Source: an uncultured Chlamydiae bacterium
GTDB taxonomy: Bacteria; Chlamydiota; Chlamydiia; Chlamydiales; JAJFMA01
Length of the DNA stretch: 64,000 bases
Direction of reading: 5' to 3'
Assembly (NCBI GenBank): GCA_963713615.1
Contig: CAVQMM010000001.1
Coordinates: forward strand, 1,856,001-1,920,000
Shown here: positions 6,951 through 60,215 of the stretch, piece by piece
Position numbering within the stretch: position 1 is the stretch's first letter
How the letters are laid out: each line of letters starts with the position of its first letter
Position numbers and translations under genes: made by a program
The notes under the pieces: generated by a model
What the model saw: only the letters and a program-made list of their open reading frames with translations
Databases searched by the model: none
Told to the model about the DNA's origin: nothing

Positions 6951-7087
6951 GGGGAGAGGGGGAGAGAGGGGAAGGGAGGGGGAAGGAGGAGGATTAGGAA
7001 TAGGATTAGGAATTTTTACCACAGAGGACACAGAGACGCCGAGGTAGGAGAGAGAGGAGAGGAAAGAGGAATTTTTTGTCTTTTATT
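6951..7087 (+). repeat. Family B inverted repeat, left arm, with G/A-rich tract
   Basis: 7002-7061 (aggattaggaatttttaccacagaggacacagagacgccgag...) is the reverse complement of 7955-8013, with 1 substitution and 1 indel. Confidence 0.9.
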
Positions 7088-7175
7088 GAGTTAAAGCCTG
7101 TAACCTCTTAATACCTCCTTAACTGATTGGCGGTATAGTATCGGTTAAATCGAACAGACAGAAGAGGGAGAGAAG

Positions 7176-7808
7176 ATGAACGTTATACAAAGTTGTTATA
7201 GATCCGTTTGTGACGCAGTAGTTCCAGAATCATTGAAGCCCAAATTTGGCATGGTTTCAGAGGCAGAAATCTCAGAAATTGCATACAAAGTTGCTCAACT
7301 AGATTCTTGGAAGACCCTAACAACAACAGTTAGCGTTGGATTGCTACCAAGCTGCGTCCCAAGTCCCTTCAATATTCTCAAGCCAGAGGAATTGACAAGC
7401 TTACCTGCACTGTTTAATCTGCGCCACCCCGTCGAAATTATCTTCTTTCCCCTGGCAATTGCAATGTTAACCCTAATGTCTGCCATCTTTGTACCTGTAT
7501 TGGCAATAAGTGGAACGATTAATGGCATGAATTTAGGTGAGAATCTTTCCGGAAAACTTCTTTGTGGCATTGCCTCAACCATTTGGGCTGTTGCTGCCGC
7601 AGGGGTCTTTGGAGCTGTGCTTTCCATCAGTCCAGGAAGTATGATAGTCATAACCTTAACCCTGTTTGTAGCATCGCGTGTTTTGAAACATATGCGAAAC
7701 AACGAGATCGCGAGCATTACAGAGCGAAATGGAGGCCGCGTACCCACTGCTGTGGTACAAGCCTGCCCAGACGCCATCCAATGGAATTCCTTGTACAAGA
7801 CGGCCTAA
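7176..7808 (+). CDS. Hypothetical membrane protein (about 3 TM segments, Inc-like hydrophobicity)
   Basis: 210-aa ORF with a purine-rich RBS. Long hydrophobic stretches IIFFPLAIAMLTLMSAIFVPVLAI and IASTIWAVAAAGVFGAVLSISPGSMIVITLTLFVA. Confidence 0.7.
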   Translation: MNVIQSCYRSVCDAVVPESLKPKFGMVSEAEISEIAYKVAQLDSWKTLTTTVSVGLLPSCVPSPFNILKPEELTSLPALFNLRHPVEIIFFPLAIAMLTLMSAIFVPVLAISGTINGMNLGENLSGKLLCGIASTIWAVAAAGVFGAVLSISPGSMIVITLTLFVASRVLKHMRNNEIASITERNGGRVPTAVVQACPDAIQWNSLYKTA

Positions 7809-7822
7809 TCGCTACCTGGGTT

Positions 7823-7920
7823 TTAATGTCCATTTTGTCCATTAATGTCCATTTTCCATTAAGAACCAATGGACTATGGACAAAATGGACTTTATGGACA
7901 TTAATGGACCATATGGACAC
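7823..7920. repeat. Family C iterated GTCCAT/ATGGAC palindrome
   Basis: Three GTCCAT units plus one TTCCAT, followed by six ATGGAC units at 7-10 nt spacing, forming a fold-back. Confidence 0.8.
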
Positions 7921-59600: not shown

Positions 59601-59864
59601 TCGCCCTATGGCCTTCTGTAATACCGATTTTTTTTGCATGCTGAGCGCTAAGTGATACTCAGCGGTGTCTGAAGAGAAGTTGCCCTCAAGTCCTGTGTCC
59701 TCTCCGAAAGAATCACCTAAAACGTGCAGAAAGAGTTTTTCATCAATCGGAACGGCAGGGAAATCCTCCACAAAAGTCTGCAGTAGCGAATCAGCTGACA
59801 GATTCGTGATTCCAATAAAGGACATAACAAAAACAATCACTGTACCATAAAAAATCCTCATCAC
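50622..59864 (-). CDS. 3080-aa DUF3638-type protein (SF2-like P-loop ATPase region) with N-terminal signal peptide and putative cysteine-protease-like domain
   Basis: YL.FEY..GILLRPEQV, MIMGAGKTSVLLPLL, IIDEVD, GFTGT, DQAHTTGSDI, LLQSVWRLR and an EQEQEQ tract. The N-terminal region has GGWYQH/FNT/PQLSGTC. Confidence 0.75.
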   Translation of the reverse strand: MMRIFYGTVIVFVMSFIGITNLSADSLLQTFVEDFPAVPIDEKLFLHVLGDSFGEDTGLEGNFSSDTAEYHLALSMQKKSVLQKAIGRADSTKRKQFQDEIDRFDKLINKLSVATELSKQNRHFEGFQAAVSAKIAALAPGEDLLILGGWYQHAVLYQVIKQVNGQYTFRAFNTQAIEYQQHFSLGSERLMLPFVEVEDVTYERMTHPYFLMALCEIEKEGGTADTFYEAVVPLLHGKASSREYGIEHLHYPQLSGTCSYAVFIAFYTQAMGDNSSARRLSFEFQTKAIHDYFSVHKDSFKHSTISRNLAKKGLTAYVIAARKSYDLGDIDADELQYTAKLVEDLSKTLQDIEKSVDSDIGAEALSMGHDQLVFEPKKRNFHELKKFIVPTANEKKIRIKGSYIPSHHFVIPREGSYQSSDFSHFVKVLEHAVKEHQWELIQAAVRDLTKTLPLSLEDEAWKDLSDCEGVRIVNILPEIAKAYMAARINLQAKDFYDFDAIDLIVHAKLLAVAETLIRRHMPELGGALPTLCPPKLCYFLSDFDEGVLGNPLLPIYDQQWCDEFASLRAFWHSERCNTHEDFFGFRKYYLNQEMSTSNLETDSLSQDILWAKQWLKNTGEWERSNLSLTIGAHPLASKQELLIRALTDFDNRLNLLPQEFFALRDLAVYVNYVFPNVWWDEAPKDYSKGVRLKWKAPQSILSYNLFGKPDGFWQETPHEAWTGKQAVIGNPPGFTQSIRMRSNNKAIALALMPYFERASEVFEMSVSDILERIKQVLDMDIDEDFVRRLGSFFHVPELQGIDALGFFERQSSLLEKQEYQELFKRVLFAGNSLKALLEKDPIRKDAFVERLATFAEYRYHEYKKLGQIDTAVFFLQFLRHLQEYLAYHQVSFDTTDERFQPLLLDTRAELRGLISSSEESADAEDAIYRELARTYQYKTQQLTADELVELVIAIGRVRDHDRENESKDIHQFRNILFSYREDIERLMSSDAAEGILNRIAAHFYQGEVRWQFQDTALGAEEVVIDPELKLSHDVCVEAPMHTLEQSSFPHFFGRTDDELVYIDLLQGSVFRHEIRPLPDAFLKTALGQRLTKGISRPLGKEIRPSVYEFIAKDGQKYLFDSLGDITYWLREGDWYRAQSNMNRDLLPNDKFDRYLDSKPYLNKNYSTISALSHDSEVWYCHDKQQVLWVNASTGRPMYAALLDSSMAVNKIYRMSSEGNPTSEILYDAFFQPVIDPLTLYTDHLNRAGSDLLRLATRLDVSEQALLWYDQETSLATRLEYPKLQMEFIPTEMHGQRKWVSPQYPGYSLAERQHLSTLGRAGNYVILEPISRDKDEKPLVLMNMFVPMRLLSGSSLDPMIQQDSDWQSKLVAFDIGEDGRPIPRTIEERLYLAICYLWQHEYNQAAHYLRGYGGLLRSLPKDSIEYRLLNKLTVLPNDDHDPRATAVQLLAYYLLFKVDGDFPDQSKRDFRIYADRYIAYLSNAEWASEHLLQPHEELFLALPLSDVDIVKARITELEVRISHQDEPEGGLQLSPWPQKSKAWSLHYVPEDAKHAIKHAKNTKPSILLPRLGREVALAYAAAKKDIDGKDLFEAIKMLTSVDPSFRQDPAPTPGYLDRIFSYFETPKEVVVSPEKAREEWDELLTFLERIKLPQNEASLLQFLIAVNRNPDLFPSVSAFEKAVMFRDADLLAILGSAQTVSHPFIQRSYPAKVSLEQSLPIKRGEVYHKGVFHGCALPLDYAERSIVENVSEYIVETASSTESKEQIHTTRDALLQQFSFQGLEPLLERSAEKLRERIHAFADTAQQKQKTYEIVSIDCLRNLEDDLSEEVLKLQLSIDQHRQEIEKCALKLPEEATDRAYEVLKRMSHLDCELLLEELVKLYATQDISLLMQRNPALSHEDAVDLYGRVGVFMQEIIRQRHVSQVISLIDELNATKDASGIAHKLYSQLTHQRAYDIAQHPAYLSFEYAMGILLRPEQVRTLDLLGIDHGTIRNTEQIDIVLEMIMGAGKTSVLLPLLSQMIADGERLAVLVMPESLLPSMSETFQKSIGDSFGLGTEILAIDRSTGSMGKSQVEYLLERLRAAVRDRRVLMVSNSSIQSLYLNFLMKLKQYHELRSAGISASEVIENEATIRVYQEIFGLLKTLGVVIIDEVDAIMDILKSHHFTTGDSRVVHEDTLSAVVGLYELLLTPDLATVLPLPFLGQSATSPFTDDNYNALLKPLLIDAVIEGRYLSQDESFQTFVKSISNTAWTAQEKLLTKPFVSSCSPEKLLRAYLANESVPEAFEFVDKIANVHVRNVLAVIQEELTSLLPLTARKNLFVHYGPSRERLQAIPYHLGRPAERSDFGTELEIINYTIQMMLEKGLKANLVANELDALKEHLKDSLTRDKALVYITEMFAGSDLKIATVKESDYEQLAAHISKKPATVLRVIHKHVLQHLRSHSEQLNANAQIYGFLFNVVHGFTGTLWNASTYPRIFDAKYPSDTEERTLYTLWDTTPDACHIIEVSSLSGKEVDMADALVAQIYAKDSGFDGSLIDQSGLFRGMPAQNIARAILKHSPHSQGVVFYDPSGDRVVLERNQNRIVSLKECHIPKDVLVVYWDQAHTTGSDIPVHSGMIAATTFGRHDILRDLLQSVWRLRKLGQGQSVFFVVSEESRKIIEDTLLKMAGVQVGEQLTFGNLLQYAFCRLVLKQADYNNRAAKHQMEGEVLKVLFNKLIDTHEDVFAAAQTYDDARELVEHSLSRQPSDIYGHMKQMKPAQEVLMNVWRNLEKGKAWKAACSSNLSMHMQNIVNEMLPQMTLMISQQDLFDHEVEVELQAEQEQEQEQEQEQEQEKLTSIPWPSEPFMPRLPWHCDGLLSREYYDLSISKQIGLGANSVEFESVAQLLSHHGFPKEFASAFNPALYLTSNLVRPSWIAKNGDLYGPFGRYRDAITDLLVIQDKVTNDLQVVMLSPYDARQVENQLIAERRSSDLAAFQSKEVRLSLVNIDTGIKIDGSEPLPPGVFTSAEYLQLKMQAQFYRGDISYGRAELPFLKKWISSNNPELLRELFLEKVIKWLPSKQRIYHGHVLDHVFKEASEAH

Positions 59865-59971
59865 TTCAACACCAATTATTTAACATACAAAAAGATCAGT
59901 ATTTACTATTCTGCACATTTAGTCAATCCATAATAAAAGTCATAGACCATCAATAATTACATTAAGTGAAC

Positions 59972-60158
59972 GATCTTGTAGATACGACTAAAATGGACCT
60001 TAATTGGATATGCAGGCACACGCATCAACCTAACAGGAAAACGGCTTTTTCATCCCATTAAATACTAGCTGGTTAAAATCTAAAAGATGTTGTAGATGCG
60101 GCTAAAATGGACTTTAACAGGATGTACAGGATCGCTTCGCGGCAGGATAGGCAGGATC
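59972..60158 (+). repeat. 45-bp direct repeat pair plus family F iterated CAGGAT unit
   Basis: 59972-60016 vs 60086-60130 are identical at 37/45. The second copy continues as caggatcgcttcgcggcaggataggcaggatc, resembling 31903-31944. Confidence 0.75.
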
Positions 60159-60215
60159 GGCCTTGTTCACCTTTTTCGTCCGACCGAAATTCTGACCGTA
60201 AAGGTGAACAAGGCC
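60159..60215. repeat. 16-bp perfect inverted repeat
   Basis: ggccttgttcaccttt (60159-74) / aaaggtgaacaaggcc (60200-15). Confidence 0.75.

Follow-up and report, generated by a model that had tools for sequence, protein, structure and literature searches.

Long palindromes built from short iterated words are scattered over a 64,000-nt stretch (the window; G000:C1:1856001-1920000) of the genome of an uncultured Chlamydiae bacterium (3.97 Mb in three contigs). Five families of such arms, B-F, had been recognized there from the sequence, and the original prediction took them for related non-autonomous elements tied to a trans-acting gene family. This agrees with what we find, as the arms frame GxxExxY and four-helix-bundle genes and empty junctions exist in a relative. 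Families B, D, E and F appear to be arms of GxxExxY cassettes, each family facing inward around the genes of one clade. Their gene-less doublets would spread in trans, likely by means of a nuclease that reads the word of its clade, and family C would be the arm of four-helix-bundle cassettes; we put the probability of this reading at roughly 55%. Since the arms frame nuclease and helix-bundle genes and are also found in hundreds of gene-less copies, it is likely that they jump and that those proteins spread them. New at this locus are the mapping of five families to partner clades in one genome, a lineage-specific expansion linked to one gene, and an excess of bracketed unrelated genes.

Arm families and their partner genes

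Exact tandem words were counted and compared with three order-4 Markov simulations of contig C1. Family B has 55 genome-wide (0, 0 and 0 in the simulations), D 151 (2, 0 and 0), C 129 (1, 2 and 2), E 43 (9, 6 and 14) and F in its strict form 21 (1, 0 and 0), counts that rule out motifs arising by chance. With a fuzzy core, the genome contains 138 B arms at 96 loci, 159 D arms at 66, 61 E arms at 52, 37 F arms at 32 and 116 C arms at 79, so that each of the predicted iterated-word families is multicopy (37–159 arms). All five are real, but a sixth, the RAYT-associated family A with 367 arms, had been missed.

Where B, D, E or F has arms on opposite strands at most 1.2 kb apart, they face inward in 105/105 cases (40 B, 51 D, 9 E and 5 F pairs, with no outward pair in any family), while E and F arms are solo in most cases. 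According to our own gene calls, 386 of the 393 B/D/E/F arms on C1 (∼98%) are intergenic. Convergent and divergent gaps are favored by the arms, elements are common at divergent junctions, and many arms are found within ∼60 nt of a stop codon. The nesting of families that had been proposed is seen at 74 of 442 occupied junctions, which hold more than one family, and in a C hairpin within the B pair of the window. Family D is the most uniform (median 0.97 to consensus), F reaches 0.95, and E is decayed (0.80). The D spacers are related in 36 of 46 cases, 20 of them being near-copies, and are thus copied together with the arms. The word ACGGTTCGT is present in 90 copies, of which 43 precede D arms and 11 precede E arms; this suggests a shared outer module or a preferred target.

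The genome gave two GxxExxY and two TIGR02436 matches and no others, and each of these genes is framed by one arm family. Both GxxExxY genes score above the family cut-offs (PF13366, TIGR04256). The first (G000:C1:1855144-1855536) has B arms around it and ends 464 nt before the window. The second (G000:C1:1921739-1922134), which starts 1.7 kb beyond the end of the window, has tandem D arms on either side, three and six in number. The statement that the window encodes no cognate enzyme was literally correct, but partner genes flank it on both sides. Among the partners that had been suggested, GxxExxY and four-helix-bundle proteins are framed by B/D/E/F arms and by C arms, respectively, whereas the RAYT Y1 transposase suggested for the five families goes with family A only. 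All four cassettes (two GxxExxY, two helix-bundle) sit between protein genes.

GxxExxY matches were found in 83 of 250 scored genomes of the phylum. We examined 151 loci, i.e., two from this genome, 29 from the phylum search, another 40 chosen among the matches that it listed, and the top 80 of the 445 loci of an all-prokaryote scan. Inverted similarity above the shuffle threshold was present at 108 of 140 usable loci compared with 34 of 140 for direct similarity; the inverted-arm loci comprise 47/65 of the chlamydial set and 61/75 of the all-prokaryote set. In a tree of 71 chlamydial GxxExxY proteins, 27 of 29 B labels fall within one clade (support 89/90), and the same holds for 9 of 10 E labels (99/99), both D labels (2/2; 100/93) and all F labels (7/7; 99/85). 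The tree requires 19 arm-label changes, against a shuffled mean of 35.1, and 0 of 200 shuffles were as low. Clade D is sister to F and clade B to E, and cross-recognition of arms might therefore be possible within these pairs. At least three exact B arms are found in 42 of 83 GxxExxY-positive chlamydial genomes but only in 6 of 167 negative ones. G152 and G174 have 17 GxxExxY matches each and G260 has 16, many of which score almost the same; the whole cassette may be multiplying in these three genomes.

The D core is found in 143 exact copies in this genome and in one copy in the other 250 chlamydial genomes. The core pattern is specific, and it gave a score of 0 for G215, where the other D-clade gene resides. 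Among four congeners, only this genome has a D-clade gene, and the other three have B- or E-clade genes only. For family E the arm density is 100/Mb in the congener G003, which has an E-clade gene, vs 17/Mb here, where E is decayed and an E-clade gene was not found. The genome can be used as a test set with two intact, clade-distinct proteins and their own words, an expanded family D, orphan families E and F, and a RAYT control.

The GxxExxY protein is predicted to be a PD-(D/E)XK nuclease. A two-sequence model was poor (pLDDT 47), and an AlphaFold2 model from 61 sequences (pLDDT 92.8) was used instead. It resembles Cas4, Hjc and restriction-type nucleases, with a Foldseek match to Cas4 SSO0001 (E 6.6e-4, probability 0.99). 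Residues E32, D72, E82 and K84 are invariant in 61/61 sequences, and D72, E82 and K84 match the catalytic D...(D/E)xK residues. When the sequence of the B-clade protein was compared with those of solved structures, no match fell below E 0.07. The accessible part of PMC3424549 gives the function of PF13366 (PDDEXK_3/GxxExxY) as unknown, and it does not mention the flanking repeats, which are present around both genes here. Our reading would offer a testable function for this widespread family (PF13366, TIGR04256).

Both helix-bundle genes of the genome are framed by C arms, and the scanned one bears a TIGR04258 suffix. Of 44 helix-bundle loci 19 have the long form, and inward GGAC iterations were seen on at least one side at 17 of these 19 and on both sides at nine. 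A further arm family with GGGAC/AGGAC words and a 9-nt period (L021:7000-7300, G001:C16; L307, L308, L310, L314) surrounds long four-helix-bundle genes of another clade, 45–51% identical to the C-framed one. The same words were found within some E elements here.

Family A is an ordinary REPIN and served as the internal control. It frames the RAYT gene at G000:C1:3256585-3257115, which passes NF047646. The genome has six Y1 transposase matches, of which one is framed by A and none by B-F arms; around each of the other five genes (L005-L009) there appears to be a separate type of repeat. A search of 1.3 Mb of G003 gave no family A element. Outer flanks of ∼90 nt are common to many copies, giving a larger unit of 340–400 nt. 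At 12–13 loci, an element with open reading frames (ORFs) of 193–195 and 514 aa, which we take to be IS66-like, lies within family A REPINs (e.g., G000:C1:58322-60806, 433284-435775, and 3750651-3753142), and it thus targets family A repeats.

Empty junctions and bracketed genes

Gene order was compared between this genome (2978 genes by our own gene caller) and 1.315 of ∼3.2 Mb of G003. This classed 782 of 2977 junctions, where a break also takes in rearrangements. The congeners share ∼65–75% DNA identity, which is too distant for nucleotide-level insertion ends. Empty orthologous loci, which had been proposed as a test, are common: of 29 conserved junctions that carry an element here, 23 lack one in G003. 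Some of these are almost spacerless there (429 nt here vs -8 nt in G003, 142 vs 0, and 377 vs 19). The HAD-lepB junction holds family A, the GGGAC family, an E pair or nothing across four congeners. Occupation of the same junction in both genomes (6/29 vs 20/299, p 0.018) is non-significant within orientation classes. Exact empty sites were also sought within the genome by colinear flank matches, and this gave repeat-derived matches only.

The arms had been placed mostly at the boundaries of accessory genes. B-F elements are indeed found at 69 of 454 break junctions vs 21 of 328 conserved ones, a ∼2-fold excess, but this is confined to co-directional junctions (28/245 vs 9/272) and is gone at convergent (19/109 vs 4/24) and divergent ones (22/100 vs 8/32). 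In addition, the RAYT family A shows an excess equal to or stronger than that of B-F. Together this points to avoidance of tight operon spacers, to which the specific tie to accessory genes is thereby reduced, and selection against insertion in such spacers is the simplest reading of the boundary excess. Window sites do border gained genes at orf210, the DUF3638 gene and a 1937-aa gene. The site at 31.8–32.2 kb, in contrast to what had been suggested, is not an accessory boundary, as dgt and vut are also neighbors in G003.

Unrelated genes are at times bracketed by arms. With cognate cassettes excluded and only lone same-family arms counted, inward arms around one unrelated gene were found five times compared with 0.44 expected (0/2000 permutations), and outward arms not at all. 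The genes are orf210 (B), a 122-aa gene (D), an ABC transporter gene (D), an AAA_14/DUF4143 ATPase gene (E) and a 1104-aa ankyrin-repeat gene (E). The last enclosure is loose, with one arm 1.1 kb off, and relatives were compared for the other four, each of which is missing at its junction in at least one relative. Orf210 is missing in G001, G002 and G003, and its neighbors are 132 nt apart in G003; the neighbors of the 122-aa gene are 92 nt apart in G001. The ABC transporter junction spans ∼0.9 kb in G001 vs 2.6 kb here, and the ATPase junction ∼0.6 kb in G004 vs 1.45 kb here.

The 122-aa gene has 41 protein matches, Woesearchaeota-named ones among them. A 76% identical ABC gene is found elsewhere in G003, where no arms were detected. 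Orf210 has no Pfam or NCBIfam match, and its protein-database match is itself alone; two arm-less paralogues (36–38%) are present in this genome at G000:C1:2956268-2957863. Its leader aligns with the B cassette leader for ∼80 nt beyond the arm core. Another B pair (G000:C1:1197433-1198332) surrounds a 182-aa ORF, which by eye resembles a group II intron maturase fragment.

Layout of the window

The genes of the window, including CT021, lon and dnaJ, agree with a chlamydial backbone, and on this basis the phylum of the genomes compared is taken to be Chlamydiota. Every predicted arm site from ∼7.0 to 60.1 kb could be located. An Rfam gathering scan of the window gave a tRNA alone.

The first site is a B pair with its left arm at 6952-7093 (+ strand, core 7016-7035, purine-rich outer flank) and its right arm at 7921-8060 (- strand, core 7981-8000), with 123 letters matching between the arms. 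It encloses the orphan gene orf210 (210 aa; 7176-7808, + strand) and a nested C hairpin (7823-7923; ATGGAC, 9-nt period) whose arms are of the type that frames two long four-helix-bundle genes (G000:C1:1850849 and 3217661). The stretch from the core of the left arm to ∼7095 can be aligned with the B-framed GxxExxY cassette (G000:C1:1855037-1855618), both in its arm and in its leader. In contigs from public runs (best share 0.17, too fragmentary to reveal an empty allele, none across the locus) one joint 7035/7989 was seen, with a 21-nt side and maybe from another organism's repeat. The public runs listed as containing the sequence included no RNA run.

Next comes a degenerate solo E arm (22394-22440, site at 22413, + strand) with the ACGGTTCGT word in front. 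A chimeric inverted pair with B-type heads and F inner arms lies between dgt and vut (31831-32176), and F arms are present at this junction in G003 too. Further on, three tandem orphan paralogues (33050-37790; 477–532 aa, 27–31% identical) are not found between vut and lon in congeners. A degenerate C hairpin (42913-42978) directly follows a rhomboid gene, and a truncated B arm (43320-43400, - strand) keeps its purine-rich outer flank. The 1937-aa protein (43483-49296) has three internal repeats with carboxypeptidase-regulatory domains.

The D doublet (49308-49477) has 51-nt arms that are 100% complementary, a DNA fold z of -16.3 (vs 200 shuffles) and a spacer common to other D doublets. Its arm is identical in type to the tandem arms around the second GxxExxY gene. 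The 9.2-kb DUF3638 gene, with an E doublet (50468-50571) at its left end, is an insertion that separates ham1 from a metallo-beta-lactamase gene, two genes that lie side by side in G001 and G003. A solo F arm (60083-60158; arm 60117-60157, + strand) marks the right end of this insertion, with a partial direct copy at 59969-60016. The DUF3638 protein (50622-59864) is 3080 aa long, and several paralogues of it reach lengths of up to 3000 aa. Next to the F arm is another inverted repeat, short and perfect, with 16-nt arms (60159-60215; five arm copies on C1). The RAYT-associated REPINs of family A are at 3562-3795, 23419-23668, 27658-27719 and 43018-43255.

Possible mechanism, alternatives and known systems

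From the association, orientation and empty junctions and from the predicted fold, we infer that the GxxExxY protein binds, cuts and moves its elements. The protein would bind the 7-nt words repeated every ∼9–10 bp, and the arms might extrude as a hairpin or cruciform that the nuclease would nick at or near the base. Host repair would then copy the arm-spacer-arm unit into other intergenic gaps without target duplication, and selection would remove copies from genes and tight operon spacers. As the spacer would be unconstrained, arms could at times bracket an unrelated gene and might, more speculatively, move it.

Several observations weigh against this reading. Neither excision, circle, binding nor cleavage was observed. 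The best structural Z of the model was 7.9 (VIA; BpuSI, root mean square deviation 2.9, 93 aligned), middling by the tool. In the tree 23 of 71 rows are unlabelled, and two B labels and one E label fall outside their clades; the arm-word patterns were self-made and partly widened after the loci were seen, and the B clade is unstarred. Related genomes and proteins are non-independent, and kinship inflates the p of the association between B arms and the gene. Six genomes have at least three B arms without a GxxExxY match (a recheck of five gave 0/5), and G001 carries 17 B arms but only an E-clade gene. Family F is uniform here and reaches 33/Mb in G003, and an F-clade gene was seen in neither genome. 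The B spacers are largely unrelated (near-copies 1/20). No GxxExxY coding remnants were found in gene-less elements, which are therefore not simple deletion derivatives. Finally, family C shares the iterated-arm design, yet its partner is no nuclease; as this partner lacks a known enzymatic fold, movement of C would need another nuclease or a host pathway.

The reading can be extended to a transposase-free class of mobile elements, in which a 130-aa restriction-fold nuclease would read its clade word, multiply doublets after one acquisition (D), and pick up or relocate genes (orf210, the 122-aa, ABC and AAA_14 genes) as a minimal form of gene capture. We regard this extension as possible but tentative. 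The capture and moving of genes, which the original prediction had suggested, finds statistical support in the excess of bracketed genes but no mechanistic support, and there are resident-gene counter-examples. Speaking against transport, B arms also face inward around two-gene resident blocks, a KpsF-like pair and thiN-lepA (2 vs 0.42 expected), and the adjacency of the KpsF-like pair to the next gene is kept in G003. The gained block of the window also holds a macro-domain gene outside the B arms. Furthermore, a gene landing inside an existing doublet (cf. the IS66-like element in A) or formation of a distant mate arm would look alike. If bracketing is transport, it would be a route of gene gain or relocation in intracellular bacteria with environmental relatives.

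It is unlikely, though the most probable of the alternatives, that the cassette protein only binds the arms, for autoregulation or hairpin protection, and that the host copies them by template switching at hairpins or by recombination. The like design of C with its non-enzyme partner fits this, as does the persistence of F and some B populations without their own gene. The two arms of one B pair are also more alike than other arms, outer flank included (p ∼1e-5 to 1e-6), and target-site duplications are not in clear excess, as shared direct words in the outer flanks of 47 D and 28 B pairs were close to control with element ends approximate (seven-letter words in B flanks, 4 vs 0 in control). 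Binding alone is, however, at odds with the invariance of the catalytic D72, E82 and K84 and with the coincidence of the D expansion with a D-clade gene.

We consider it improbable that these are RNA-level elements akin to the intervening sequences (IVS) of 23S rRNA, where arms would pair in the transcript, RNase III would cut, and spread would occur by RNA or homing. According to the accessible part of PMC4990558, the four-helix-bundle proteins are the S23p family known from IVS, and IVS end in inverted repeats; a weak PF05635 match under the cut-off and the many arms close to stop codons point the same way. But both 23S genes are full length without an insert (2945–2946 nt), the four cassettes all sit between protein genes, divergent junctions are commonly occupied, and iterated words are not part of the IVS stem descriptions in the same part of that article.

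Host regulatory or nucleoid-protein sites kept at transcription-unit boundaries are highly improbable, although an IHF/HU reading of similar Geobacter pairs is given in the accessible part of PMC2700814 and the intergenic arms favor convergent and divergent gaps. Such sites would not be expected to vary as HAD-lepB does among four congeners, to be private to one genome as D is, or to be absent in G003 from most of the conserved junctions that are occupied here. Least probable of all is that a RAYT or IS200-type HUH transposase mobilizes all families with the GxxExxY and helix-bundle genes as passengers, since, despite the Y1 gene framed by A and the junctions shared between families, no Y1 gene lies inside B-F arms, 11 of 36 B-carrying genomes have no Y1 match (including single-contig G120 with 34 arms), and the arm word follows the GxxExxY clade.

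Our preferred reading, in which GxxExxY nucleases spread the arms of their clades, would account for the abundant but so far unexplained palindromes between genes in chlamydiae and other phyla. Miniature inverted-repeat transposable elements and composite transposons of classical insertion sequences are also non-autonomous units with inverted ends, and such ends can bracket a passenger gene. Here, in contrast, the arms have no tie to a DDE transposase, target-site duplications show no clear excess, and the framed genes are not transposases.

ORF-bearing 23S IVS share with the present cassettes a small helix-bundle ORF between terminal inverted repeats and a sporadic, horizontally acquired distribution, as far as described in the accessible part of PMC4990558. 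The elements studied here differ in lying outside rRNA, in their iterated words and many gene-less copies, and in that four of the five families go with a nuclease-fold gene.

A similar design is found in Geobacter metallireducens, where 21 opposite-strand pairs with variable spacing and three tandem words were described as "class 2 global regulator binding sites" and read as IHF/HU sites (Aklujkar, 2009, PMC2700814, accessible part). Their reverse complement starts with TAAC followed by ACGGAG repeats, like B and D in design; that part of the article names no partner gene and mentions neither mobility nor a tie to GxxExxY. Clustering of multicopy repeats has been remarked elsewhere (PMC2996986, accessible part). 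No paper in the literature searched, which left most subscription journals outside, ties these arms to GxxExxY or proposes mobility.

The likeness to the REPIN/RAYT system is extensive, judging from the accessible parts of PMC3116915 and bioRxiv 10.1101/2021.07.10.451892. In both, what is copied is an inverted doublet whose spacer varies, and both share an extragenic location, hundreds of copies, tandem or nested clusters, a single-copy partner gene flanked by its repeat, and co-variation of repeat and protein. In our genome the hairpin doublets are found and the co-variation is with the GxxExxY clades, while B-F arms do not flank a RAYT gene. The partner differs as well, being a GxxExxY protein of predicted PD-(D/E)XK fold or a four-helix bundle and not an HUH tyrosine transposase, and the words are iterated units of 6–7 nt. 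This suggests that the mode of life known from REPINs also evolved around a second class of enzyme.

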